Positions 1 through 30,740 of a stretch of 64,000 nucleotides of DNA are shown here, one piece after another. Source of the DNA: a virus (lineage: Duplodnaviria > Caudoviricetes). Where the stretch lies: IMG/VR virus record IMGVR_UViG_2974556029_000001, positions 1 to 64,000 of that record; one strand, 5' to 3'. Each line of letters begins with the position of its first letter. Within the stretch, counting starts at the first letter, position 1. The notes under the pieces are model-generated. The model searched no databases and was not told the origin of the DNA. It was given only the letters and a program-made list of their open reading frames with translations. The position numbers and the translations under genes are program-made.

Positions 1-84
1 GCCCGCTCGCGATCGAAATTCCACGGCCGCCGGCTTGGCGGGGCGTGGGTTCGAGACGCGCGGGGGTGTCTCTCCTATGGCAGA

Positions 85-459
85 TCAGTCGCCCGGCGCG
101 ACACAGTCCCAGTTTCCGACGGTGTTGCCGTTCTGGTCGCGCACGTTGCCGGCGCGGTTGCCGCTCTCCACGCTTTCGGCGATTTGCCTAAGGATTTCGG
201 CGGCTTGCTGCTCGGGCTCCTGGGCGAAAGCGTCGTTCCCCATGCCGAACCAGAGCGAGAATTGCGGGCCTTCGGTGTTCATCCGGTCCACGGCCTCTAG
301 GGCCGCGTCCACGTCGCGGGCCTGCTGGTTGAAGTGGCTCGCGGCTTCGATCGCCTCGGCGATACTGGCGCGGCGATAGGCGGCTTGCGCGGCCTCACGG
401 TAGAACGCGGCCGAGGTATGCAGCGCTTGAATGATGGTCTTGAGGGTAGCTTGATCCAT
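85..459 (-). CDS. Small hypothetical phage protein
   Basis: 124 aa ORF with AGGAG RBS (CCCTGACAGGAGCCGCACCATG); C-terminal GNVRDQNGNTVGNW motif typical of small phage proteins. Confidence 0.7.
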   Translation of the reverse strand: MDQATLKTIIQALHTSAAFYREAAQAAYRRASIAEAIEAASHFNQQARDVDAALEAVDRMNTEGPQFSLWFGMGNDAFAQEPEQQAAEILRQIAESVESGNRAGNVRDQNGNTVGNWDCVAPGD

Positions 460-485
460 GGTGCGGCTCCTGTCAGGGGGCGGAA

Positions 486-505
486 TTGTCCCCGATCGGG
501 AACAA
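486..505. promoter_or_regulatory. Palindromic operator copy (TTGTCCCCGATCGGGAACAA)
   Basis: 20 bp palindrome with one mismatch, upstream of the 85-459 start; a related GTCCCCGAATTGGGGAC lies at 541-557. Confidence 0.65.
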
Positions 506-603
506 CCATAAGGCAGAAACGACTAGCGCGTGCCCCGATCGTCCCCGAATTGGGGACGGTTATTTCAGCGGGTCGCGGGTCGGATAGCGAAAAAGTTGCG
601 TGG

Positions 604-987
604 CTACTGCGAAACCGCCTTTGCGGCCGTGGTGAAGCGCCAGCCAGCAGCCCAGGCGCGCGCCTTCTCTTCGAAGCCGGGCGGGCGCGGATGGTCACGC
701 CCTGAGACGTCCCGTGTGGCGGTGAGGTAGGGGTTATGCGCCTCAGTGTAGCCCAGGCGCGCCGCGTCCATCCCGTCCGACATGATCGCAGCGAGGGGGA
801 AGTGGGCGTGATCCCAGGACCTGGGCGCCGGGGAACGCTCCCAGGACCAACGCGCGATCGGGGACAGCTCAGCCCAGGAAACGCGCGGCGTGCGCCTGCT
901 GTCTCCATTCAGGGGGCGAGCTGCAACGTCCGCCTCATAGGCGAGCTGAGCGAGGGAGGGGGCGCGGGCGATGGTGGCGGCTTGCAT
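604..987 (-). CDS. Hypothetical protein
   Basis: 127 aa ORF; ATG preceded by GGGAACACCTGAC, overlapping an operator copy. Confidence 0.6.
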   Translation of the reverse strand: MQAATIARAPSLAQLAYEADVAARPLNGDSRRTPRVSWAELSPIARWSWERSPAPRSWDHAHFPLAAIMSDGMDAARLGYTEAHNPYLTATRDVSGRDHPRPPGFEEKARAWAAGWRFTTAAKAVSQ

Positions 988-993
988 GTCAGG

Positions 994-1007
994 TGTTCCC
1001 GATCGGG
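994..1007. promoter_or_regulatory. Operator copy TGTTCCCGATCGGG
   Basis: Same core as 486-505, 6 bp upstream of the ATG at 987. Confidence 0.6.
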
Positions 1008-1021
1008 CTCAAATGAGGGGG

Positions 1022-1180
1022 TTACAGATAGGCGCGCTTAATGCGCTGGGCTTCAGCCAGCGAGGCGGCGCGGAACCCCTCGCTCTTGGTCTTGTCCTTC
1101 GCCTCGCGCATGCACCGGTCATAGCGGGCCTTGTAGCGGGCGCGTTGTTCACGTTCGGCGGGGGTGAGGGTAGAGCGCAT
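1022..1180 (-). CDS. Micro-protein (52 aa, MRSTLTPAEREQRARYKARY...)
   Basis: Read by hand: ATG at 1180, TAA at 1022-1024; same upstream context as the 987 gene; below the ORF-track cutoff. Confidence 0.55.
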   Translation of the reverse strand: MRSTLTPAEREQRARYKARYDRCMREAKDKTKSEGFRAASLAEAQRIKRAYL

Positions 1181-1185
1181 GTTGA

Positions 1186-1200
1186 TTGTTCCCGATCGGG
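1186..1200. promoter_or_regulatory. Operator copy TTGTTCCCGATCGGG
   Basis: Same core, 5 bp upstream of the ATG at 1180. Confidence 0.6.
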
Positions 1201-1363
1201 GCTCAAGCGGAGAGCAAGGCGAAGGAAAAGCCGCAAGCGGCGGATGACAGGACCAGGAGATAGGCGGCCCTCACGGGGCGGCGGCTACCCACGGCCATGG
1301 CGTAGAGCCCGACCATGCAACCGACCCCCATAGCGGCGACCCCGCCCAGGTGCAGGGCGGTTC

Positions 1364-1546
1364 TCACGCCGCACCCATGCGGCGCAGGTCAAACAGGGCC
1401 GATTGGCGCTTGACCTGGGCGACCATGACCCGCCGCTCATGACGGGCGCGGGCCGCCTCGCTAGTGGCAAGGGCCAGAGCGGCGAGGGCGTGCGACAGCT
1501 CGCGTTCAGCGCGGGCCAGCAGACGGGAGGCGCTACGGGCTTCCAT
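1364..1546 (-). CDS. Small helical hypothetical protein
   Basis: 60 aa ORF abutting the 1548-1676 gene. Confidence 0.5.
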   Translation of the reverse strand: MEARSASRLLARAERELSHALAALALATSEAARARHERRVMVAQVKRQSALFDLRRMGAA

Positions 1547-1547
1547 G

Positions 1548-1676
1548 TTAGATCACTCCGAAGAGGCGCAGCAGCAGCGCCCAGAGGAAGGCCGAGGCGA
1601 GGAACGCCCAGACCAGGGGAAGGCGACGGGAGGCGGGCCGCACGGGCGCGCCGGTGAAGGGGACGGGGAGGGACAT
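1548..1676 (-). CDS. Small membrane protein (MSLPVPF...LVWAFLASAFLWALLLRLFGVI)
   Basis: ATG overlaps the upstream gene's TGA; one hydrophobic helix. Confidence 0.5.
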   Translation of the reverse strand: MSLPVPFTGAPVRPASRRLPLVWAFLASAFLWALLLRLFGVI

Positions 1677-1969
1677 CAGGCGCGCGCCAACGTGGGGACC
1701 ATCGCGCCGCCATGCGACACATTCACGGGGATAAGCCCAAGGGTCCACTGCACCCGCACGCCATCGGCCTCAGTCCCATAGGTGACATGGGAGCCGGTGG
1801 CGCGGACCAGTTGCCCAGCCTCACCACGCCCGGCCAGCTCGAAGCGAGCGCCGCCGGTGTGAGGGTCAACGCTGTAGAGGACGCACGCCATGCGGTGGTG
1901 CTGAGGGCGCACGATGCGGGCGAGATGCGCCGGGGTGCGCTGGCGAAGGATGCGGGCGATAAGCGCCAT
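1676..1969 (-). CDS. Hypothetical protein (MALIARILRQ..., 97 aa)
   Basis: True start within track ORF 1676..2554: ATG at 1969 preceded by CCTGACAGGAG. Confidence 0.55.
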   Translation of the reverse strand: MALIARILRQRTPAHLARIVRPQHHRMACVLYSVDPHTGGARFELAGRGEAGQLVRATGSHVTYGTEADGVRVQWTLGLIPVNVSHGGAMVPTLARA

Positions 1970-2094
1970 GTCACTTGCTCCTGTCAGGTAGGGAAGGCTA
2001 CCCTTCCCCTTGTGGCCCCGGCTGCTCCCCGATGGAGCGGCCCCGAACCAAAGCGACAACCAACTATGGGACAGCAGACCCAAAACCACAAGAA

Positions 2095-2160
2095 AATAGA
2101 GGGGGGGGGTACCCTGGGAGATCGAGTCCCTACCTCGCAAAATTTTAATCCCCCCCTGCC
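2095..2160. other. Candidate DNA packaging (pac/cos-like) region
   Basis: G run, GGTACC, AAAATTTT and a C run just upstream of the probable terS, where gene orientation switches. Confidence 0.3.
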
Positions 2161-2191
2161 CGTTGTGTCCGAGATCTGGGGTGAGGAGGAG

Positions 2192-2848
2192 GTGGGGCAA
2201 GCGGCTGATGGGGCGCCCGGTGATGATGGATTGGCGCGGGACGCGGTCCAGGGTGCCGGCGAAGCCGAAGTCCCAACGGGCAGGGCGGTTGTGGCGGCGC
2301 GGCTCGAGGTGGGGCCGAACGGGCTGATCACGCGGGGCAAGGCGGAGCGGCTGGTGCAGTTGATGGCCGAAGGCATGTCCGATACTGAGGCGAGGGGGCC
2401 GGCCGGGTTCAAGTCGGACGGGGCGGACACCAAGCAGCGGCGCGGGATTGTCGCGTCGCCCGTGTTTCAGGCGAGGCTGGCCATGTTGAGCGAGGAGCGC
2501 GAGAAGCTGCAGGACCGCGGGCCGCTGGGCGACGCGCTGTGGGCCGCGAAGCAAACCTTCAGGGCCGCGCAGCTCAAGGACGACCTGACGACCCAGATGC
2601 GGGCCGCGCAGCTGATCGCCGACATCTCCAAGAACATGCAGGGCGGCGGCGATGGCGAGCCTGGCGCGGATGGCCCGGCTGCACCTGGCGCGCCGGCGGG
2701 CCGCGGACCTGGTCGGCCGGCGAGCGAGCTGAAGTCGACCAAGGTCAACATCGAGAAGATCACGCGCGACCTGAAGGAGATCGGTCTCCAGCCGCGCACA
2801 ATTCCGGCCGGCGCTACCTTGCCGGCCAAGGAGGAGGATCCGTTATGA
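2192..2848 (+). CDS. terS: Probable terminase small subunit
   Basis: HTH-like RLVQLMAEGMSDTEA, then VFQARLAMLSEE and RAAQLIADI segments typical of TerS; GAGGAG RBS before GTG 2192 (start uncertain); first gene of the late-strand block. Confidence 0.55.
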   Translation: MGQAADGAPGDDGLARDAVQGAGEAEVPTGRAVVAARLEVGPNGLITRGKAERLVQLMAEGMSDTEARGPAGFKSDGADTKQRRGIVASPVFQARLAMLSEEREKLQDRGPLGDALWAAKQTFRAAQLKDDLTTQMRAAQLIADISKNMQGGGDGEPGADGPAAPGAPAGRGPGRPASELKSTKVNIEKITRDLKEIGLQPRTIPAGATLPAKEEDPL

Positions 2849-3174
2849 CGCCGGTCCGCGCGATCAGGGTTTCCGATCTCGACGAGACGAGCCGCCCGGG
2901 CGAGTTCATGTGGCTCAGCCAGAGCGGCCATCCCGAGGCCGGCTGGGTCATGCTCAACTTCATGTGCCCGTGCGGCTGCGGGCGCGAGGGCGGCGTCACG
3001 ATCGACACGCCGTTCACCAGCAAGCAGGGCGAGACGCCGCGCTGGTGGTGGGACGGTAACGAGGAGCGGCCCACGCTGAAGCCCAGCATCGACTGGCGCT
3101 TGCCCGACGGCCAGGGCGGCACCGTGTCGCACTGGCACGGCTATCTGACCGAGGGCATCTTCGCCCCATGTTGA
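2845..3174 (+). CDS. DUF6527-like Zn-binding protein
   Basis: CPCGCG...WWWDG...PTLKPSI...HWHGYLTEG motif; GGAGGAGG RBS; overlaps the TerS stop. Confidence 0.6.
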   Translation: MTPVRAIRVSDLDETSRPGEFMWLSQSGHPEAGWVMLNFMCPCGCGREGGVTIDTPFTSKQGETPRWWWDGNEERPTLKPSIDWRLPDGQGGTVSHWHGYLTEGIFAPC

Positions 3175-3602
3175 AACAGGCCGCCAAGCCCTGCTCCGAT
3201 CGCGTCTTGAACCTGGTCGGAGCCGGGCTGAGGACGGCTGTGCTCCTGGACATGGCGCACCGGCTCCGCGCCGGTCACGACGTCATCCTGGCGAGCCAGA
3301 CCCTGCTGCAGGTCAAGACCATGATCGCCGACCTGGGCCGCCACCTGGGCCGCGGCGTGATCGAAGGCGAGGTGGCGCGCTGGGGCAACAGCGGCCACGC
3401 CCACTTCTTCGCGCTCGAGCCGGATCACCCTCGAGTCGCCGACCTGCTCTGCATCACGGCGGCCTGGTGCGACGAGCTCTACGGGTTCAGGGCGACCCGG
3501 AACCAGATCGGCGCGGCGAACCACCTGGTCAGAAACCTGCGCAAGGTGGTGCACGGCACCAATCCCAAGATCATGATCACGGGCGACCCAGCCTGGCCTT
3601 GA
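3168..3602 (+). CDS. Truncated TerL-ATPase paralog 1 (144 aa)
   Basis: RWGNSGHAHFFALE...AAWCDE...NLRKVVHGTNPKIMITGDP aligns with this window's TerL EWPNGAVAHVFSAE...AAWIDE...NLRFALRLGNNPQRIYTMTP. Confidence 0.75.
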   Translation: MLKQAAKPCSDRVLNLVGAGLRTAVLLDMAHRLRAGHDVILASQTLLQVKTMIADLGRHLGRGVIEGEVARWGNSGHAHFFALEPDHPRVADLLCITAAWCDELYGFRATRNQIGAANHLVRNLRKVVHGTNPKIMITGDPAWP

Positions 3603-3665
3603 TCTGCGCCGCGCGCCGTGCTCCGCTCCCGTGGTCTGAAACTGCTTTTTCCACGGGAGAGCACC

Positions 3666-3947
3666 ATGCGCCTCAACTACATCCTGCTGAGTATCGTCAC
3701 CGCCGTCGCCGGCCTGGCCGCGTCCTTCGCAAGTTTCGCCGTCTCCATGTTCGAGCGCGTCAGTCGCGCCGTCGCTGTCGCCTTCCCCTACGCGCCGCGC
3801 GAGCCGCAGGTCCTGCCGTCGCTGATCTCGACCAAGATCTCGTTCGCCGGCGCCGCGCTGGCCCGGGTCCGCTCCTTCGCCTCGCGCCGCATGGCTCGGG
3901 TCAAGCCGGGCGAGGTCTACTCGATCCCGGTCGGCGCGCCGGCCTGA
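3666..3947 (+). CDS. Small protein with hydrophobic N-terminus
   Basis: GGGAGAG RBS, ATG 3666; signal- or TM-like N-terminus. Confidence 0.6.
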   Translation: MRLNYILLSIVTAVAGLAASFASFAVSMFERVSRAVAVAFPYAPREPQVLPSLISTKISFAGAALARVRSFASRRMARVKPGEVYSIPVGAPA

Positions 3948-3974
3948 CCGACGTTCCATAACCGGTACGCATAA

Positions 3975-4004
3975 GCCCCGCCGGGTCGCCCTGGCGGGGT
4001 TTTC
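3975..4004 (+). terminator. Rho-independent terminator, possibly bidirectional
   Basis: GCCCCGCCGGG-TCG-CCCTGGCGGGGT stem then TTTT, between convergent genes. Confidence 0.75.
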
Positions 4005-4235
4005 CTATGCCGGCACACCTTCGCCAAGGTCGATCAGCATCTTCATGCCCAGGGCGGACACCGCCTTCATGACCAGACCGACGTGGGCCGTGGCCTTGCC
4101 GTTCTCGAGATCGACGATGAACCGGCGCCCCGAACCGATCTTCTGGGCCAGGTCGGCCTGGCTCCAGCCCTGCGCGACGCGGGCGTCCCGGATCAGCTGC
4201 CCGAACCTCGACGTGGTCTCGACGTGGATTTCCAT
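4005..4235 (-). CDS. XRE-family HTH regulator (HipB/Y4mF-like), orphan
   Basis: FGQLIRDARVAQGWSQADLAQKIGSGRRFIVDLENGKATAHVGLVMKAVSALG; no adjacent HipA kinase. Confidence 0.85.
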   Translation of the reverse strand: MEIHVETTSRFGQLIRDARVAQGWSQADLAQKIGSGRRFIVDLENGKATAHVGLVMKAVSALGMKMLIDLGEGVPA

Positions 4236-4248
4236 GGCGCACCTCATT

Positions 4249-4266
4249 TGTACCCGATCGGGAACA
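4249..4266. promoter_or_regulatory. Operator copy TGTACCCGATCGGGAACA (likely autoregulatory)
   Basis: Directly upstream of the HTH RBS and ATG. Confidence 0.7.
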
Positions 4267-4417
4267 TAAACACTTTGCCGGCGCGTGGGAATGGGTTACG
4301 AATTTGGCGCGGCCCCGGAACGTCTGGGCTAAAACCTAGGCGCGTTGATAGGCGTTACCCGCCTCCTTCCCCAACCCGTCAGCGCCGGGGCCGCAAACCC
4401 TGAACGGAGAACCCCAC

Positions 4418-4960
4418 ATGAAGCTTTTCAGCGAAGGAGTCCGGGTCGAGATCGGCAAGACCTCGAACCAGACCAAGATTACCGATCTGGCCACGGGCGA
4501 GTTGGTCGAGAACCTGATCGGCATGGCGATGGAGATCGACGGCAACAACCGGACCGATCGCCCTGTGTTGATCCTGGTCATCGGCGATGTCGACATGACG
4601 GTCGAGAACGATCGGGTCGACTACCAGGTCGACGCCGGCCTGCTCCAGCGCATCGCCGAGTTCAACGGCTTCGACCTCGTGCCCAAGCCTGAGCCGGTGG
4701 CCGACGTCGAGGACGACGAGCCCGAGCTTGTGGCCGCCTCCGTCTCGACCGAGGTGATAAAGCCCGACCTGGTTGAGGAGCTCGAAACCATCCCGTCGCT
4801 CCGGAACGACGCGGTGCAGGTCTCCGCCGCGACGGAACACCAGGCCGGCCAGCCGGTGGGGCGGGGCACCAACATCCTCAAGGGCGGCATCGGCGGCCTG
4901 AGCGAGGATCTCGGCACGGACGAGATCCCGCGCAGCCTCGACACGTCGGATCCGGTCTGA
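4418..4960 (+). CDS. Hypothetical protein, acidic C-terminal half
   Basis: 180 aa, GGAG RBS, phage codon usage. Confidence 0.7.
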   Translation: MKLFSEGVRVEIGKTSNQTKITDLATGELVENLIGMAMEIDGNNRTDRPVLILVIGDVDMTVENDRVDYQVDAGLLQRIAEFNGFDLVPKPEPVADVEDDEPELVAASVSTEVIKPDLVEELETIPSLRNDAVQVSAATEHQAGQPVGRGTNILKGGIGGLSEDLGTDEIPRSLDTSDPV

Positions 4961-5328
4961 TGACGAGCTTCAACGCCGTCCTCGAGGAGGTGTGGGCCAG
5001 CCTTCTGTCTGGCACCCTCACCCATGTCGTCGTGCTCCACGGCGGCGAGTCGAACGTTCTGATCGACGCGATCAAGGCCAAGATCAGCGCCGAGCAGGTC
5101 AACGTCACCCTGAACCTGAACGACAAGGTCGTGACCTTCGTCAACGGCGAGAAGCTGCGGATCATCGCCGGCGACGCCTCGGAGAAGCTGCGCGGTCTCA
5201 TGCTCGATGGCCTCTGGCTGCTGAACCTGGACGCGCTTCCGGTCGACGTCTGGCGCACGGCGCGGGACCGCGGCGTGATGGCTCTGCGTCTGGGCCGCAT
5301 GGCTCGCTTCGAGTCCTCGTTCGACTAG
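4960..5328 (+). CDS. Truncated TerL-ATPase paralog 2 (122 aa, Walker B lost)
   Basis: TFVNGEKLRIIAGDASEKLRGLMLDGLWLLN...MALRLG aligns with TerL EWPNGAVAHVFSAEDPESVRGHEFDAAWIDE...FALRLG. Confidence 0.7.
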   Translation: MTSFNAVLEEVWASLLSGTLTHVVVLHGGESNVLIDAIKAKISAEQVNVTLNLNDKVVTFVNGEKLRIIAGDASEKLRGLMLDGLWLLNLDALPVDVWRTARDRGVMALRLGRMARFESSFD

Positions 5329-5330
5329 AC

Positions 5331-5636
5331 ATGGACGATGCGACGCGGGCCCGGCTCCTTGAGCTGCAGCACGAACTGCTCTGGAGGAGCCCGGCCCGCG
5401 GCGCATCTGTCCTGATTTTCGAGCGCCCTGGCGTGGCCGAGATCAAGGCCTGGCTCTGGGCCCGCTACATCGGCGCGGACGAACTCACCTACCTGGCCCG
5501 CGCCGCTTTCGAGAAGCATGACGCGGTCGACATTGCGCTCTCGGGCGCCGGCGTGCTCCATGCCCATGTCAAAGGCGTCCTGGCCTGGCTGGTCGACCAG
5601 GGCGTCACCGTTCCGACCAGAGGAGAGACCACATGA
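5331..5636 (+). CDS. Hypothetical protein
   Basis: ATG 5331 follows the previous stop; phage codon usage. Confidence 0.65.
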   Translation: MDDATRARLLELQHELLWRSPARGASVLIFERPGVAEIKAWLWARYIGADELTYLARAAFEKHDAVDIALSGAGVLHAHVKGVLAWLVDQGVTVPTRGETT

Positions 5637-5830
5637 GCATCGTCACCCTGCAGACCGACAGCGGCGCGCACGTCCAGAACGTCCAGATCCCCGATCTCCG
5701 CCCGCCGGCCCGCGCCGTCGTCTGGGGCGAGCGCGTCTTCCTGCTGCACCAAGAGGCCGACTCGTCCGGGTCGCGGGCCGTGTATCGCGAAATCTTCGCC
5801 ATCGCGCCGATCGCGATCGGCAAGGACTAG
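5633..5830 (+). CDS. Small hypothetical protein
   Basis: AGGAGAG RBS, ATGA overlap with the upstream gene. Confidence 0.7.
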   Translation: MSIVTLQTDSGAHVQNVQIPDLRPPARAVVWGERVFLLHQEADSSGSRAVYREIFAIAPIAIGKD

Positions 5831-5853
5831 ATATCGGGCGCGAGAATGTGTTA

Positions 5854-6283
5854 ACGAGGCGGCCTGCAGCTGCCGAAAGTAAGCAAGCCCTTAGCGCTGG
5901 GGGCCCTGAGGATAGGCGGAGAACCTGGGCCAAGGGATGATGACTTCCCCCGGGACGTATCGATCGCTATTGGCCATCCACGCGCGGGAAGGACAGGCGG
6001 TCGGGACGGAGGTCGCTTGGGATTGGAGGCCCGCCAGGTTTACGCCCGGCGGGCCTTCGTGTATTTCGAGCCTGCTGCGGAGGTGGGGAGAAGACCCAGC
6101 CCCGACTGAAGGTAGGCGCCGACCGCGCCGTTGGAGCCAGGACGCCAGTCCTGGAAAGGCGGAGAACGCGAGACCCGGACCCCTGGAGTAACGCCCAGGG
6201 CTGCAGCGCGGAACGAGGTCGCACCGGGCGGCCGGGAGATCGACGAGGCTCAACCGAAACAGCTGCCGGGGACCGCCTCGTCG
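5854..6283 (+). ncRNA. Candidate ~430 nt structured non-coding RNA
   Basis: End-to-end pairing ACGAGGCGG(5854-62)/CCGCCTCGT(6273-81) plus GCAGCTG(5866-72)/CAGCTGC(6260-66); several internal hairpins; no credible ORF in an otherwise gene-dense operon. Strand assumed from the flanking operon. Confidence 0.55.
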
Positions 6284-6333
6284 TTTCGTCCGTTAAAAAT
6301 GGGATTTTTAATCCCGGAAAAGGAGACCCTGAC

Positions 6334-6612
6334 ATGTCCAAGATCAATCGGCGCGGCCTCTTCGGCCTGTTGTTCGGTGGCGCGGCCGCCGCCGCTCTCC
6401 CCAAGAGCGCCGTTGCGGCGGTAGCTCCGGCGCCGCTGAGCGCGAAATATGCTCTCAGCCTGGACACGGCCGGCCACATCACAGGTTTCAAGGCGGTCCA
6501 GCCGTTCCGCATGGAGCAAGGCTTTGTCGTCGTGGCCGAGAACTTCGGTTTCGTCGACCCATCGGCCCCCTTGAAGCAGCCGACGGCCAAGAACGTCCGG
6601 ATCGCCCGCTGA
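6334..6612 (+). CDS. Tat-signal protein carrying a copy of a tail-tip (DUF1983-like) segment
   Basis: INRRGLFGLL twin-arginine signal; ALSLDTAGHITGF...FVVVAENFGFVDP matches tail-tip VLSLNVDGHITGW...FVVVADEFGFVDP. Confidence 0.75.
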   Translation: MSKINRRGLFGLLFGGAAAAALPKSAVAAVAPAPLSAKYALSLDTAGHITGFKAVQPFRMEQGFVVVAENFGFVDPSAPLKQPTAKNVRIAR

Positions 6613-6887
6613 TGGTGGCCGCGATCCACTACGAGGCCGGCGAGACCGCGTTCTCTGTCCGCGGCACGGTGAAGCGCAAGGGCGATGGCCTGCCCAGCGT
6701 GATCATCGAGACCAAGACGGAAGGCGGCGACTGGGAGCATTGGTCCACGACCAAGTGCATCTTCCCCCAGGGCCAGGATGCCGGCTTCAGCAGCGTGATC
6801 CTCCCTCTGGGCGACGGCCAGGTCCGGGCCCGAGTCGAGCCGGTCGGATCGGGCAAGGTGGCGACCTTCGAACGGGCCCCAACCTAG
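6612..6887 (+). CDS. Small beta-rich hypothetical protein
   Basis: TGATG overlap with the upstream gene; 91 aa. Confidence 0.6.
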   Translation: MVAAIHYEAGETAFSVRGTVKRKGDGLPSVIIETKTEGGDWEHWSTTKCIFPQGQDAGFSSVILPLGDGQVRARVEPVGSGKVATFERAPT

Positions 6888-6960
6888 GCGAGACCGCTGT
6901 TTTTCGGTCCGGGGTGTGATAGATCGTCGCACGCGCATCCCGCGCCTGGAGCCTCCCCCC

Positions 6961-7206
6961 ATGGAAGACCAAATCATCCGCCAGGCCAAACTGGCCAAGC
7001 GCATCTTCACCACCCTGGAAGAGCGCTATCCCGACGACCAAGACCTGAAGAAGCTGCACGCCGTCGCCGCCGGTGGCCTGCAGATCCTGGGCATCGATCT
7101 CACCGCGATCGGCGAAGAAGCCAACCGCTCGGGCGGCGTCGACAAGAACGTCATCCTGGCCGACGAGAACGGCGAAGAGCCGGCGTCGGAAGGCGAAGAA
7201 GCCTGA
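6961..7206 (+). CDS. Small protein with RSGGVDK motif and acidic tail
   Basis: GGAG RBS before ATG 6961; coupled to the downstream membrane gene. Confidence 0.65.
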   Translation: MEDQIIRQAKLAKRIFTTLEERYPDDQDLKKLHAVAAGGLQILGIDLTAIGEEANRSGGVDKNVILADENGEEPASEGEEA

Positions 7207-8051
7207 TGGGTCCGCTGGCGCTGTTCTACGGCGCCATGACCGCCGCGGTCGCCATCCACGGGTGGCGATCGCGGTACTGGGACGTCTACATGGTGGGCGT
7301 GGTCCAGGTGGTCGGGTGGCTCATGTCGAACGCCTCCAATCTCCGCCTCCATGGCGTCGATATGATGGAGGGCTTTGCCTATACGGACTGCTTCATCCTG
7401 TCGGCCCTGCTGATCCTCTACGGAGCGCGGCCCACGTTCTGGAAGCTCCTGATCATGGGCCTGATCCTCCTGCAGAACGGGATGCACGTCGTTCAAGGCA
7501 CGTGGGGAGGCGAAGAGAGCCTGTCTCTCTACCGCTGGTTCTTGAACGGATCCTATGTCCTTCAGCTCGCGGTTCACCTGGTCGTGGTGCGCTATCCATC
7601 GTTCGACGTGGAGACCCGCCACGGGCCGGTAATGCGTCAAAAGCGCGCGGGCCTTCCGAAAGGCTCAGTTTCGCGGCATGGTCGGCCCAGACCCCACAGG
7701 AGCTGCACTCCGATGAAACGCATCTACCTGGCCGCCATGGTCGCCAGCATAGGCCTATCGGGCCTGATCATGTCCCCCGCCATGGCCTATCCCCCGCCCG
7801 GGCGCGAGCCCCCCGATTTCGTGCCGTTCGAAGTGGTCCAGGGCGGGCTCAGGATCCGCGCCCACCTCCGGGAGCTGCAGAACGGCGAGACGATCTCGCT
7901 CCCAGGCGCCTTCGTGCCGGCCGACACCTCGGAGGACCTGGCGATCTACTGGGACCGGCGATCCAAGGCCTATGTGGCGCGCCAGGGGACGGAATATCTG
8001 GTCAATCCCGTCCGATACGTCATGATCGGCAGAGCCAGAGCCCCCGACTGA
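7206..8051 (+). CDS. Multi-pass membrane protein with an in-frame downstream secreted ORF (internal ATG 7713)
   Basis: Four to five hydrophobic segments; AGGAG RBS before MKRIYLAAMVASIGLSGLIMSPAMA at 7713. Confidence 0.6.
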   Translation: MGPLALFYGAMTAAVAIHGWRSRYWDVYMVGVVQVVGWLMSNASNLRLHGVDMMEGFAYTDCFILSALLILYGARPTFWKLLIMGLILLQNGMHVVQGTWGGEESLSLYRWFLNGSYVLQLAVHLVVVRYPSFDVETRHGPVMRQKRAGLPKGSVSRHGRPRPHRSCTPMKRIYLAAMVASIGLSGLIMSPAMAYPPPGREPPDFVPFEVVQGGLRIRAHLRELQNGETISLPGAFVPADTSEDLAIYWDRRSKAYVARQGTEYLVNPVRYVMIGRARAPD

Positions 8052-8052
8052 C

Positions 8053-8068
8053 CATTGCACTTGCAATG
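8053..8068. promoter_or_regulatory. Palindrome CATTGCA-CT-TGCAATG upstream of terL
   Basis: Perfect 7 bp inverted repeat, followed by another TGCATTG half-site. Confidence 0.4.
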
Positions 8069-8082
8069 TTCTTGCATTGTCG

Positions 8083-8123
8083 GCGCCGCCGCCCTGGCCT
8101 GGGTCGGCGGCGCTTCTCGTTTC
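8083..8123 (+). terminator. Terminator/attenuator-like hairpin before the terL RBS
   Basis: GCGCCGCCG/CGGCGGCGC stem followed by TTCTCGTTTC. Confidence 0.45.
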
Positions 8124-8133
8124 AGGATGCCCC

Positions 8134-9564
8134 ATGGACCGAATGGAATCGCCCTTCTATCGCGCCGGGTTGACGCGAGAGTGGTGGACCTCGTTGCCTG
8201 AGGAGGAGCGCGCCAGGGTGCTGGCGTCGTGGACCCCTGTCGAAATCGAAGCCTTCGCCAAGGACTGGCGCGTCTGGGCCCGCGATCAGCAGCTTCCGCC
8301 GCCGGGCCAGTGGCGCTCCTGGATCCTGAAGTGCGGCCGCGGCTTCGGGAAGAACCGCAGCGCCGGCGAGCAGGTCAAGGACTGGGTCGAGAGCGGCCAG
8401 AAGGGGCGTATCTGCCTCCTGGGCCAGGGCGAGGCCGACGTGCGCGACATCATGGTCGAGGGCAAGTCGGGCCTGCTGGCCATCTCGAACAGCTGGTTCC
8501 GCCCTAAGTGGTCTCCGAGCCGCGGCGGCGGCCTGCTCGAATGGCCCAACGGCGCGGTGGCGCACGTCTTCTCGGCCGAGGATCCGGAGTCTGTCCGGGG
8601 GCACGAGTTCGACGCGGCCTGGATCGACGAGCCCATGTCCTACAAGGCCAAGAACCGGCAGGACATCATCTCCAACCTCCGCTTCGCCCTGCGCCTGGGC
8701 AACAACCCGCAGCGGATCTACACGATGACGCCGAAGCCGCACAAATGGCTTCGTGAGCTCCTGGCCACGGTCAATCCAGCCAAGGGCATCTACCTGACCG
8801 AGGGCTCCACCTACGACAACGTGGACAACCTGCCGCCGGCGTTCCTCGAGGACGTGACCGACGACTACGCCGGCACCAGGCTGGGCGAGCAGGAGCTGAG
8901 CGGCATCCTGCTGAACGACACCGAAGACGCCCTCTGGACCAGCATGCTTCTGGACCGGTGCCGGATCATGAAGGAGGCCTCGGAAGAGGAGATCATGAAT
9001 TTCGCCAAGTCGATGGAGCGCATCGTCGTGGCGGTCGACCCGAACATCTCGGCCACCGGCACGAGCCACGCCGCCGGCGTCACCGTCATTGGCCGCAAGG
9101 CGGGCAAGCGCTATCTCCTGGCCGACAAGACCAAGCGAGGCGGCCCAGACGTCTGGGGCAAGAACGCCGTGAACGCCTATGCGGACTGGAACGCCGACGA
9201 GATCGTGGCCGAGGTGAACCAGGGTGGCGACCTGGTCAAATCCGTGATCCAGCAGGTCGGTGTCTCGCTCGGGATTGACGTGCCGGTCCACAAGGTCCAT
9301 GCGACTCGAGGCAAGCAGAAACGCGCCGAGCCGGTGGCCGCGGCTTACGAGCAAGGTCGCTGCCTGCACGTCGGGCCGGCCTCGCGCTACACCAAGGTGG
9401 AGAGCCAGATGTGCGACCTGCACGAGGGTAACGACCAGACCGGCGAAGACTTCGACCGAAGCGACTCGGTGGTGTGGGGCATGACCCGTCTCGCCAAGGG
9501 CGAAGGGGGCGTGACCAGCGCCGGAGGTTCGGGCATCTTCACCTTCGACCAGATCGGAGCATAG
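8134..9564 (+). CDS. terL: Terminase large subunit
   Basis: Walker A-like CGRGFGKN, Walker B AAWIDE, coupling motif YTMTP, RNase H-like nuclease IVVAVDP...DRSDSVVW. Confidence 0.95.
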   Translation: MDRMESPFYRAGLTREWWTSLPEEERARVLASWTPVEIEAFAKDWRVWARDQQLPPPGQWRSWILKCGRGFGKNRSAGEQVKDWVESGQKGRICLLGQGEADVRDIMVEGKSGLLAISNSWFRPKWSPSRGGGLLEWPNGAVAHVFSAEDPESVRGHEFDAAWIDEPMSYKAKNRQDIISNLRFALRLGNNPQRIYTMTPKPHKWLRELLATVNPAKGIYLTEGSTYDNVDNLPPAFLEDVTDDYAGTRLGEQELSGILLNDTEDALWTSMLLDRCRIMKEASEEEIMNFAKSMERIVVAVDPNISATGTSHAAGVTVIGRKAGKRYLLADKTKRGGPDVWGKNAVNAYADWNADEIVAEVNQGGDLVKSVIQQVGVSLGIDVPVHKVHATRGKQKRAEPVAAAYEQGRCLHVGPASRYTKVESQMCDLHEGNDQTGEDFDRSDSVVWGMTRLAKGEGGVTSAGGSGIFTFDQIGA

Positions 9565-10955: not shown

Positions 10956-11817
10956 CCGCGACGTCGCAGACCAGTTCATAGACTGGTCCTGGGAGGATCT
11001 GGACGACCTGGCCGATCATGGCCTCGAGTCCGGATCCTTGAGCGACGACCAGGTCGAGCAAACCATGACGGCGCACTATGCGCCGATCCTGATGGCCCTG
11101 CTGCTGGACCGCCTGGAGGCCGTGGCGCAGGACCTCGAGGTCTCCCCCACGGCGCCGCGCGCGGTCCAGGAGGCCGAGGACGCGGTGAAGGCCTTGGTCG
11201 GGCAGCTCGCACCGAGGGCCAAGGAGGCGCTTTCCGACGTTGTGGCGCGCGCCTATGCCGAGGGCTGGGGCGTCCGCCAGACAGCCCGGGCGATCCGCCG
11301 CTACATCACCCTGACGCCGCAGCAGGTTGCCTCGGTCCGTCTCTACGACCAGGAGCTCAGGAGCAATCCCCAGAAGGCGCTGCGGCGCACGGCGCGCGAC
11401 AGGCGATACGACAAGCCCTTGGCGCGTGGCGAGGTGCCGGCGAAAGCCAAGCGCGAGGCCATGGTCGAGAGGTACCGTGAGCGCCTAGAGATGCGCCGGG
11501 CCCTCACGATCGCGCGCGAGCAGCTATGGCAGGCCGACCAGCTGGCCGAGCATGCGCTCTGGAGCGAGGCGGTCGACACCGGCGTGTTCGCGGCCGGCAC
11601 GGTAAGGAAATTCTGGAACACCCGCGAGGATGCGCACGTGCGCCATAGCCATGCGGGAATTCCGGGCGACTATCCCGACGGAATTGCGCTAGACGATGCC
11701 TTCGTGACGACACTGGGCAAGTTGCGCTATCCATTGGACCCCAGAGGTGTGGCGGCGGACCGGATCGGTTGCCGCTGTTGGCTGACCTTCAAGGTCGTGA
11801 CAGAGGCAAGGACATGA
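10942..11817 (+). CDS. Minor head morphogenesis protein (Mu gpF-like)
   Basis: KFWNTREDAHVRHSH...LRYPLDP...RIGCRCWL C-terminal motif. Confidence 0.85.
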   Translation: MPLRDRDVADQFIDWSWEDLDDLADHGLESGSLSDDQVEQTMTAHYAPILMALLLDRLEAVAQDLEVSPTAPRAVQEAEDAVKALVGQLAPRAKEALSDVVARAYAEGWGVRQTARAIRRYITLTPQQVASVRLYDQELRSNPQKALRRTARDRRYDKPLARGEVPAKAKREAMVERYRERLEMRRALTIAREQLWQADQLAEHALWSEAVDTGVFAAGTVRKFWNTREDAHVRHSHAGIPGDYPDGIALDDAFVTTLGKLRYPLDPRGVAADRIGCRCWLTFKVVTEART

Positions 11818-13022
11818 GCACGAGGAAATTTATGAAGCGGATCGGCGGCGTGGTGACCTCCACGGTGCGATCGCTGACGAAGCGCGCAGGGCTGAGCATC
11901 TATCGCCCCGTGCTGAACGCCGACAAGTGGGCCGCCTGGATGAAAGAGGCCGGCGTCCCGAACGCCAAGGCCGCGGCGGACCTGAAGGTCAACGTGCTCC
12001 AGGCCATCGGCGGCGCGATCGCCGTCGTTCCGGACCGGGACATCCTGAACATCCGCGCCGTCTCGGGTGTCTTCATGAGCCACGGCGTCAACGGCTTGGC
12101 CTTCGCCTGGTACGACTACTACTATAACGATCGCCACTGGGCCCTGCGCGAGCTCGCCGGCTGCGAAGTTTCCTGCGTCCACCGCAACCTGCTAGTCCTG
12201 TCCGACGATATCGGCGATTTCGAGCTGACCGACGACATGCTGCTCAAGGCGCCGGTCTCCATCGTGCTCGACGGCGAGCAGACCGCCACGATCACCGACA
12301 CCGACATCGACCTGATCAAGAGCGCGGCCTCGGGCGAGGACCTGGTCAAGGCCAAGGACGTCGAGAGCGCGGTCGGCCTGCTGGTGTCGTCCTACGAGGA
12401 TCCGGACTTCAATCCGGTCCTGCAGAGCGCGCTCTACGACCTGTCCAAGGGTCGCTCGGTCGCCAGGGATGACCTGGACGGCCTCGACGACGAGGACATG
12501 AAGGTCCTGGGCCTGGAAAAGAATGTTCCCGATCGGGAACGTCAGGTCGAGAAGGCGAAGGAGCCCGCGCCCGCCCCGGCGCCGGCCAAGGTCGAGAAGG
12601 CCAAGGATCTATCCCCGAATGAGGGGCGGATGATCCGCAAGGACAAGAGCCTGCAGACCGTCTACGGCTTCGCGAGCGTCGCCGTCACGGCCGACGGAGA
12701 CACGGTCACCGACTGGCACGGCCACGAGATCACGACCGACGCCCAGCGAGACCTGCTCTGGGGCTTGGTCAAGGGCCAGCGCCAGGGCAACATCGATCAC
12801 GACGAAGACGACATGTCGGGCGAACTGGTGGAAGGCATCGTCTTCACCAAGGAACTCTGGCAGGCGCTCGAGCCGTACACGGGTCAAGAGGGACTCTTCA
12901 TCGGGATGCACTTCCCCAAAGCCGAAGATTACGACAAGACTGCGGATAAGGGGATGTTCTCGATCGGCTGCAGGGGCACCGTCGAGGAAATCGAGGTCCC
13001 CGATGAACTCGAGGAGACCTAA
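11814..13022 (+). CDS. XkdF-like prohead protease with a degenerate N-terminal 2H-phosphoesterase-like domain
   Basis: C-terminal TVYGFASV...DWHGHEI...GNIDHD...FSIGCRG (XkdF); N-terminal SIYRPVLNADKWAAW...DLKVNV...NDRHWAL. Confidence 0.7.
   Translation: MSTRKFMKRIGGVVTSTVRSLTKRAGLSIYRPVLNADKWAAWMKEAGVPNAKAAADLKVNVLQAIGGAIAVVPDRDILNIRAVSGVFMSHGVNGLAFAWYDYYYNDRHWALRELAGCEVSCVHRNLLVLSDDIGDFELTDDMLLKAPVSIVLDGEQTATITDTDIDLIKSAASGEDLVKAKDVESAVGLLVSSYEDPDFNPVLQSALYDLSKGRSVARDDLDGLDDEDMKVLGLEKNVPDRERQVEKAKEPAPAPAPAKVEKAKDLSPNEGRMIRKDKSLQTVYGFASVAVTADGDTVTDWHGHEITTDAQRDLLWGLVKGQRQGNIDHDEDDMSGELVEGIVFTKELWQALEPYTGQEGLFIGMHFPKAEDYDKTADKGMFSIGCRGTVEEIEVPDELEET
12525..12540. repeat. Perfect operator-like palindrome GTTCCCGATCGGGAAC inside a CDS
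   Basis: Best match to the consensus; lies in a low-complexity linker of the protease gene. Confidence 0.5.
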
Positions 13023-29225: not shown

Positions 29226-30740
29226 GTGCTTGCTGACTGCCTTGCCCCAGAAATCTTCGAACCGTCGGAAGCGAGCCTGACGGTTCCGAACGTCACGGTC
29301 ACGGGGAAGACCCTGACCAAGGATGGCGTGAAGGTGCCGGCGCTGCAGGCGGCATGGTCTCCCGTCACCAACCCGTATGTGACCGACGTCGAGTTCCAGT
29401 TCACGCCGTCCGACGGTAGCTCCGGCGCCCTCTCTTCGAAGTCGCGGGCCGACGCCCTGTCGTGGAGCGACCTGCGGGTCGTGGCCGGCCAGGAATACAG
29501 CATCAGGTGGCGCGCGGTCGGCGCGAACAAGGTCGGCCTCTGGTCGGCGCCTGTCCTGCGCACGCCGCCGGCGACCCTTGTCTCGACCGACACGATTACG
29601 GTCGGCGGCCGCGACGCCAAGCAGATCCTCAAGGACATGGACATCAATGCCGCGGCGATCATCCGCGAGGCGATGACCCAGGTCGACACGAGGGCCTATC
29701 TCGACGCCCTGGCCTATATCGACGGCGCGCCGGTCGGCTCGGTCGTGGTGCACGAGATCACGCGGACCGACGACCTGGTCGAGACGATCGACATCATCGG
29801 CGTCAAGACGCCGGACCGCACCGCCTTCATCCTCAACACGGACCTGGTCTACACCAGCGGCACCAAGACGCTGGCGCAGACCTTCACCGATATCCGCGTC
29901 GAGGCGCAGACCAACCTCGCGGCCGCCGTCACGACCATCAACCAGGCGATTATCGACGGCGACTATCTGCTGGCCCAGCAGATCAACACTGTGGCTGTGC
30001 AGGCGAACAACAACCTTTCAGCCGCGGTCAGCACGCTGAACCAGGCTATCATCAACGGCGACAACGCCGTGGCCAGCCAGGTGACGAGCGTCCAGACGAC
30101 GGTGAACGGCCACACGTCTCAGATCTCGTCCTTGTTCTCGTCGATCAACGGGATCCGGGCCGAGGCCGTGCTCTCGCTGAACGTGGACGGCCACATCACT
30201 GGCTGGTCCCTGATCAACGACGGGAATTCCGGTTCGTTCGTCGTGGTGGCGGACGAGTTCGGCTTCGTTGACCCGGGCGGCGGGTCGCCTACCTTCCCGA
30301 TCAGCTATTCCGGCGGCCTGCTCCGGATGCTGAACGTCGCGATCGATACCTTGGTGGTGGGCTCGGTCACGACGTCGGCTATCGGCTACAACGCCGTCAC
30401 CGTGCCATCGATCGCCTCGGCCAGTTGGACGATGAGCGGAAGCGGGTTCTTCCAGAGCATCCTGTCCACGACGGTGTCTCTGACCCAGGCCGGCTGGGTG
30501 CGCGCCACCGCGGCTATCGCCCAGCACTTCCCGTCCGGGGACAGGAACTGGGAGTTCCGCCTCTACATCAACTATTCCATGGCGTTTGATTGCTACGGCG
30601 CGAACGGCCAGGACAGCATCGCGCTGAGCGGCGCAGTCTATTGCGGCGCCGGAGCTATTCCGGTCGAGATCCAATGGAGCGCCCACAGCTCGGTCACGAT
30701 CGACTATCGAACCTGCGAAGCCCTTGGAGTGATGCGATGA
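29226..30740 (+). CDS. Tail tip / central fibre (gpJ C-terminal-like, FN3 plus DUF1983-like)
   Basis: FN3-like EYSIRWRAVGANKVGLWS, coiled-coil repeats, LSLNVDGHITGW...FVVVADEFGFVDP. Confidence 0.8.
   Translation: MLADCLAPEIFEPSEASLTVPNVTVTGKTLTKDGVKVPALQAAWSPVTNPYVTDVEFQFTPSDGSSGALSSKSRADALSWSDLRVVAGQEYSIRWRAVGANKVGLWSAPVLRTPPATLVSTDTITVGGRDAKQILKDMDINAAAIIREAMTQVDTRAYLDALAYIDGAPVGSVVVHEITRTDDLVETIDIIGVKTPDRTAFILNTDLVYTSGTKTLAQTFTDIRVEAQTNLAAAVTTINQAIIDGDYLLAQQINTVAVQANNNLSAAVSTLNQAIINGDNAVASQVTSVQTTVNGHTSQISSLFSSINGIRAEAVLSLNVDGHITGWSLINDGNSGSFVVVADEFGFVDPGGGSPTFPISYSGGLLRMLNVAIDTLVVGSVTTSAIGYNAVTVPSIASASWTMSGSGFFQSILSTTVSLTQAGWVRATAAIAQHFPSGDRNWEFRLYINYSMAFDCYGANGQDSIALSGAVYCGAGAIPVEIQWSAHSSVTIDYRTCEALGVMR

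Follow-up and report, generated by a model that had tools for sequence, protein, structure and literature searches.

Why should a phage carry, between the genes for the two subunits of its own terminase, two small intact reading frames that retain the fold of the terminase ATPase after the motif that would bind ATP has been lost? The question is raised by the first 64 kb (here termed 'the window') of an 80,297-bp phage contig, IMG/VR record IMGVR_UViG_2974556029_000001, in which the genes for the small and large terminase subunits (terS and terL) are separated by 5.3 kb, the distance given in an earlier reading of this DNA from its sequence alone. That sequence-only reading proposed that the gap, which holds thirteen open reading frames (ORFs) and a 500-nt non-coding stretch, is a cassette of decoys, copies of the phage's own immune-sensed proteins that titrate Avs- and Bil-type sensors. 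As described below, two genes of the gap (3168 and 4960; genes are named by their first position in the window) encode degenerate TerL ATPase cores, and the gap itself is an accessory-gene hotspot, shared by an entire clade, in which genes come and go singly.

The first of these 'mini-TerLs' (3168..3602, plus strand) is 144 residues long, or 120 if translation begins at the GTG at 3240, which is the database start; the second (4960..5328, plus strand) has 122 residues. A Smith-Waterman (SW) comparison of 3168 with the phage's own TerL gives a z of 9.8, an alignment joining 3168 to the homologous protein of the closest relative matches TerL by hhalign at 91.8% (E 7e-7, 141 columns), and its Atlas model matches TerL ATPases with a TM of 0.66-0.74. 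For 4960, plain BLAST does no better than chance (22 of 300 shuffles scored as well), and the fold is assigned by profile (hhalign E 2e-4) and by its Atlas model, which reaches a TM of 0.77-0.80 against TerL ATPases over ~117 residues. The two have decayed differently: 3168 retains Walker B (WCDE) together with a remnant of Walker A (GAGLRT) that lacks its lysine, the P-loop region being absent altogether if the protein starts at GTG 3240, and 4960 has no Walker A and a Walker B in which DE has become LN, while NG and the arginine of LRG remain. Neither has the C-terminal RNase H nuclease, since both ORFs stop after the ATPase core. Relative to a complete Terminase_6N/6C TerL, the mini-TerLs thus share the order of strands and the part of the ATPase core that holds NG, RG and Walker B (whose DE is present in 3168 alone), and differ in their size (120-144 residues), in having no functional P-loop, nuclease or lid, and in their position outside the clade's TerL tree. 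The hhalign and Atlas comparisons confirm the TerL ATPase core fold of both proteins, which lack a functional Walker A, and bear out the earlier claim of two truncated TerL-ATPase paralogs. A third piece of TerL lies beyond the window: a stand-alone nuclease domain of 181 residues (genome 64881-65426, minus strand; 2882-3427 in contig L003; Terminase_6C E 4e-7), in which the first and last catalytic aspartate positions are kept and the region of the middle glutamate is altered.

The further claim that the paralogs are the phage's 'own' copies is not supported. In SW comparisons the scores of 3168 against its own and against foreign Terminase_6N proteins are tied (74 and 75, respectively), and for 4960 foreign Terminase_6N proteins give higher scores than the TerL of its own clade; no paralog nests within the clade's TerL in a tree. 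On these scores and the tree, a recent copy of the phage's terL is rejected, although the tree, a quick version with paralog branches of 6-8 changes per site, unsure placement and an unfinished clade test, shows only that a recent duplication is not visible. Pseudogene decay, which would have undermined the earlier proposal, was likewise rejected, given native codon usage in intact frames; in the island ORFs tested, the codon adaptation index is core-like (0.55-0.81 in frame, as against 0.21-0.38 off frame; narrower ranges of 0.55-0.76 and 0.25-0.35 were also obtained). Searches for homologs of 3168 and 4960 among billions of proteins recovered only the two themselves, and when alignments of terL, capsid, BubE and the paralogs were used for pattern scans, neither viral nor metagenome contigs gave a match. 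Single-sequence AlphaFold2 models were poor (pLDDT 45 and 41) and were set aside, together with a fold search with one of them whose best match (Z 3.7) is noise.

The packaging genes that flank the gap are not equally easy to name. The large terminase gene (terL, 8134-9564, plus strand) has intact motifs and matches Terminase_6N and Terminase_6C; its best database matches are ~41% identical, with no close cultured relative returned. The ORF on the other side (2066..2848, plus strand; its start, 2066 or ~2285, is uncertain) has no family match of its own in the window copy, but is probably terS, because it is kept in all ten relatives whose locus extends to it and one of those homologs matches the PHROG small terminase subunit (E 2e-4). 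It is the first gene at the right edge of an exact direct terminal repeat of 2127 bp (1..2127), and the record is classed as having direct terminal repeats. Neither a tyrosine integrase nor a large serine recombinase was detected in the phage.

The terS-terL gap as an accessory-gene hotspot

A TerL search returned a clade of relatives, mostly on contigs of 70-82 kb (given L numbers here), in ten of which terS could be located, with a TerL identity of 44-77%. In nine of the ten the gap spans 2.3-9 kb and holds varying small genes, and in L017 a single gene, encoding a BubE protein, lies between terS and terL. A stand-alone TerL domain is found in the gap of six relatives: an ATPase paralog in L011, L012, L013 and L016 (E 1e-13 to 5e-11 against the TerL-N profile), an ATPase paralog with a weaker match to that profile in L004, and a paralog consisting of the nuclease only in L010. 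The ATPase paralogs of the relatives have kept Walker A (as GKT or GKS) and altered Walker B. In the closest relative, L004, a 3168-like gene with an intact GQGKS (4038-4538) occupies the slot held here by 4960, and both BubE and the gene with a Tat-like signal described below are absent from the gap. No gene set is retained as a unit across the relatives, and copies of virion or packaging proteins account for three of the thirteen genes of the window's gap. Stand-alone TerL domains thus recur as different, exchangeable genes rather than as part of a fixed cassette, within a clade-wide hotspot in which dead copies of packaging domains are over-represented.

Selection on these genes can be viewed at two distances. 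For the paralog pair of L013 and L016, dN/dS is ~0.48, near the values for terL (0.37) and portal (0.45), which indicates purifying selection on that paralog family. At close range, the comparison relied upon near-identical phages, in contigs that span the island genes and come from runs (soil and unlabelled) of two studies. In run X1, divergence is 2-4% for terS, BubE and terL, 9.5% for 4960 and 15-16% for 3168, the last with an additional diverged patch of 129 nt; 3168 and 4960 thus diverge several times faster than terL. Among the differences listed, 4960 shows nine amino-acid changes, of which six fall within the ten codons of residues 24-33, and three silent ones, and terL shows none and seven, respectively. 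In two runs, 3168 has a gap of a single nucleotide close to its 3' end. For 4960, fast change is what these counts show, and positive selection is not proven by them.

A BubE homolog and a tail-tip fragment with a Tat-like signal

Two further genes of the gap bear on the decoy proposal. The first (2845..3174, plus strand), a zinc-peptidase homolog that the sequence-only reading correctly called DUF6527-like, matches Pfam PF20137 with an E of 5e-15 (55.5 bits, against a cut-off of 23.6). DUF6527 proteins of the BubE type are Ser-His peptidases that remove conjugates of the ubiquitin-like protein BubA (bioRxiv 10.1101/2024.11.21.623953). Like the BubE of Bub operons described there, 2845 scores above the Pfam cut-off and has, by motif alignment, CPCGC (the CxCxC motif), the serine (LKPS) and the histidine (HWHG); unlike it, 2845 is an orphan in a phage, with a longer Ser-His loop (a spacing of 17 rather than 10 residues) and three zinc-finger cysteines, the fourth position having no cysteine and an adjacent histidine that could substitute. 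Its neighbors are terS and a mini-TerL, and genes for a ubiquitin-like protein, E1 or E2 do not lie beside it. The BubE of L012 keeps all three cysteines, the serine and the histidine, and orphan copies occur in many unrelated phages, once beside terS. The gene provides a second, independent link to ubiquitin-like defense, one that the earlier reading did not draw, and a phage BubE with a Ser-His dyad is a concrete candidate for an enzyme directed against ubiquitin-like modification.

The second gene (6334..6612, plus strand) had been read as a copy of a tail-tip segment behind a twin-arginine (Tat) signal. The tail-tip half of this claim holds: residues 35-76 are identical to residues 310-350 of the phage's own tail-tip protein at 20 of 42 positions (48%), a score equaled by none of 300 shuffles. 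The segment resembled (30153..30275, plus strand, within the tail-tip gene at 29226-30740) opens the Phage_Tail_Tip domain, which resembles the central straight fiber of protein J (PF09327, PDB 9ZE4); of that fiber 6334 carries a 42-residue fragment only, placed behind the Tat-like signal. The signal itself was seen as a motif (NRRGLF...AVA, with the RR and AxA elements) and has no match to a signal model in Pfam or NCBIfam.

A scan for relatives of 6334 returned one gene, L018 6001-6249, in an unrelated 62-kb IMG/VR phage, which opens with the same nine residues and continues with sequence similar to two separate parts of the 1258-residue tail protein, a tailspike, encoded by L018 itself. The first scrap corresponds to a tailspike repeat (E 2e-4; one of 500 shuffles scored as well), and the second contains a GDS motif whose only other such occurrence in that genome is in the same tail protein. 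This gene and the lysis genes are on opposite strands. A similar Tat-like signal opens L017 274-558, where it is followed by a 22-residue TerL-like scrap (SW z 5.9; ADPERLRG). That gene also contains a GYARGG motif, which may recall the C-termini of tape-measure proteins. A fourth Tat-like gene, L007 6967, had no structural-gene match in the sequence compared. Taken together, the three cases (6334, L018 and L017) suggest a design in which a Tat-like signal is joined to a scrap of a core protein. Searchable papers contained nothing on export-tagged virion fragments, and their occurrence in unrelated phages appears to be undescribed.

Possible partners of the mini-TerL proteins

Stand-alone look-alikes of the terminase ATPase are already on record, their function being open. 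The T4 protein vs.8, Ksap1 and Ksap2 are such look-alikes, and all activate Avs2 (PMC13601566, PMC11564622), Ksap1 at a length of 74 residues (PMC11564622, PMC13601566). Avs1-3 and Upx have terminase as their target; for Avs2 the ATPase domain by itself is a sufficient activator, and loss of catalytic activity mostly leaves terminases able to activate Upx (PMC13601566). The authors of that work, the 2026 Avs2/Upx paper, call the role of the look-alikes open and suggest anti-defense (PMC13601566). Like them, the mini-TerLs are small, lineage-restricted, stand-alone proteins with the terminase ATPase core fold, here with an intact terL in the same genome, and 4960 resembles vs.8 with an SW z of 4.1. 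The difference is that vs.8 has Walker A and Walker B and lies far from packaging genes, whereas two differently degraded copies are found here between terS and terL with a nuclease-only copy elsewhere in the phage. These precedents lead us to claim no new class. They also argue against simple titration: because the ATPase domain, vs.8, Ksap1 and Ksap2 activate Avs2 and dead terminases mostly activate Upx, the sponge role proposed earlier for the paralogs is unlikely. Room for antagonism is left by the fact that Avs2 and Avs3 both read terminase-bound ATP, which 3168 and 4960 cannot hold.

Phage genes in conflict with terminase are also known, in the form of Rip1, located in a terS-terL gap (PMC13434031), and TerI, an example of phage-encoded packaging inhibition (bioRxiv 10.1101/2025.02.27.640495). 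Both share with the mini-TerLs the tie to terminase, and Rip1 the position between terS and terL as well; they differ in being prophage defenses that act through TerS (Rip1 also through the portal), and neither has been reported to be a copy of TerL.

The explanation that we prefer, though tentatively, is that the mini-TerLs are binding proteins in conflict with host factors that recognize terminase, housed in an accessory hotspot of the late operon. The hotspot lies at what appears from its position to be the start of that operon, so that genes landing there would be made late, alongside packaging and tail proteins. With ATP binding or hydrolysis lost and the fold kept, the mini-TerLs would most likely act by binding, and host factors recognizing terminase would be their most likely partners; they might compete without causing activation, or sequester inhibitors or modifiers that act stoichiometrically, rather than be simple sponges for Avs2 or Upx. 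BubE would act separately, stripping ubiquitin-like tags from phage proteins, as the biochemistry of its family and its kept serine and histidine suggest. In the weakest step of the scheme, the Tat-tagged tail-tip fragment would most likely act at the envelope, directed at the tails of incoming phages or at a sensor in the periplasm; if exported, it would miss cytoplasmic Bil or Avs.

Several observations weigh against this explanation. The known look-alikes vs.8, Ksap1 and Ksap2 trigger Avs2 (PMC11564622, PMC13601566). A TerL paralog was not detected in the gaps of L006, L007 and L014, which makes the mini-TerL genes dispensable, and the ratio of nine to three in 4960 is, among the differences listed, the neutral expectation, so that relaxed selection fits equally well. 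As for BubE, the L017 protein has neither the serine nor the histidine, and since Bub operons have no demonstrated anti-phage activity, an anti-defense role for 2845 is something that we infer.

A different kind of partner would be the packaging motor. As dead subunits in the TerL ring, or bound to TerS or the portal, the mini-TerLs could time the phage's own packaging or poison that of a co-infecting phage; 4960 has lost its own ATP site and retains the invariant LRG arginine, which we take to be the trans-acting arginine finger, as in P74-26 TerL. Their siting in the packaging operon, their scores against foreign Terminase_6N proteins (as good as or better than those against the clade's own) and the precedent of TerI fit such a role. 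However, the mini-TerLs have no lid and linker, which in TerL form much of the ring interface, a fast-changing surface patch would not be expected in a protein that pairs with so constant a TerL (96% conserved), and a poison made late would endanger the phage's own motor. We regard action on the motor as unlikely.

The neutral count in 4960 could instead mark tolerated debris: old duplicated or captured fragments that drift under weak selection in a permissive region and have no current role. Branches of 6-8 changes per site, the lack of any detectable relative of 3168 and 4960 in billions of proteins, and the single-nucleotide gap that two runs show in 3168 fit such remnants. Pseudogenes, however, do not decay in a way that leaves frames intact, codon bias native and the fold in place at such divergence, a related paralog family is under purifying selection, and comparable proteins are present in six relatives as well as in phages outside the clade (vs.8, Ksap2), all of which makes debris an explanation in which we place little confidence.

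The decoy cassette as originally conceived, a single co-selected unit titrating Avs- and Bil-type sensors, fares worse. Its parts are real: the paralogs are intact, degenerate, fast-evolving and recurrent, a stretch of 3.8 kb contains BubE along with three copies of sensed proteins, HepS is known to be triggered by a peptide of protein J, and the central tail fiber is the target of Bil. The unit is what fails, for the hotspot shifts and its members do not travel together (L004 has a paralog without BubE or the Tat gene, and L017 has BubE alone), ten of the gap genes are not copies, the known look-alikes trigger Avs2, and Tat export would part 6334 from cytoplasmic sensors; we consider the full model very unlikely. 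Least probable of all is reuse of the terminase core for an unrelated job in nucleic-acid or nucleotide binding, such that likeness to TerL says nothing of the partner: Walker A (GKT or GKS) with an altered Walker B in the relatives' paralogs would fit nucleotide binding, and the Atlas feature matches are small viral families without annotation, but both window copies have no P-loop and the repeated siting beside terL is left unexplained.

A more general proposal, which we consider unlikely, is that phages build counter-defense or anti-competitor proteins from scraps of their own core proteins, with dead terminase cores antagonizing terminase sensors without activating them, a mobile twin-arginine signal carrying any available virion fragment (tail tip here, tailspike scraps in L018, a TerL scrap in L017) to act in the envelope, and the hotspot gathering both alongside a peptidase that removes tags. 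Among the triggers of bacterial pattern receptors, terminase has been studied best. A single genomic slot of this clade presents a natural series, in which Walker A, Walker B or neither is retained or the nuclease alone is present, so that it can be tested directly which of these states trigger a sensor and which block it.

Remaining genes and elements of the locus

The orphan HipB-like helix-turn-helix (HTH) gene reported earlier (4005..4247, minus strand) is of the Y4mF/HipB type (TIGR03070, E 7e-20) and is conserved in L004; a HipA toxin gene was not seen in the terS-terL gap. The palindrome CCCGATCGGG lies just upstream of it (4253) and is present in eight copies, at 491, 998, 1191, 4253, 12528, 20418 and 49168 of the window and at genome position 64413. 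These copies form a candidate regulon, and the HTH protein is probably a phage regulator rather than a decoy. Its best cellular matches are from Rhizobiales, pointing to a likely alphaproteobacterial host.

The remaining ORFs are all on the plus strand. A 93-residue protein with an N-terminal hydrophobic helix (3666..3947) has a weak homolog in the gap of L010 (E 0.008). Just before 4960 lies a gene (4418..4960) for a protein of 180 residues, with a conserved N-terminal half and an acidic tail, that is found just before terL in several relatives (L004, L011, L012 and L013). After 4960 come a 101-residue protein (5331..5636), also paired with the mini-TerL slot in L004 (66% identical), a 65-residue protein syntenic in L004 (5633..5830) and, beyond 6334, proteins of 91 residues (6612..6887; no family match) and 81 residues (6961..7206; syntenic in L004, 57%). 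The last ORF (7206..8051, internal ATG at 7713) is a fusion of a four-helix membrane protein with a signal-bearing protein of 112 residues; its parts are separate genes in L004, with a 718-residue gene between. Its 3' part is 16% divergent in run X3. PADLOC returned no match for ten island proteins, and a search for tRNA and tmRNA genes returned none.

The stretch at 5831..6333 (plus strand), previously described as a structured non-coding region, is indeed non-coding, with no codon signal, and its ends can pair. Its folding, however, is not above chance (z -1.7; eight of 100 shuffles scored as well), and it has no Rfam match. Within it, a 43-nt hairpin (6028-6070) is 91% conserved in L004 (5107-5149), whose TerL is 77% identical.

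Elsewhere in the clade, SspB-family genes recur in the gaps of L006, L007, L012 and L015 and DUF1153 genes in those of L006, L007, L013 and L016; other contents include a DnaG-like primase (L010) and a dUTPase (L012). Directly upstream of terL lies an inverted repeat (8063-8097), with similar short elements in L004, L012, L015 and L016, that could be a regulatory or packaging site. The prohead protease gene of L014 (12971-14092) and of L017 (12901-14094) carries an Acb1-family domain by Pfam, and its homolog in the window lies at 11814-13022.

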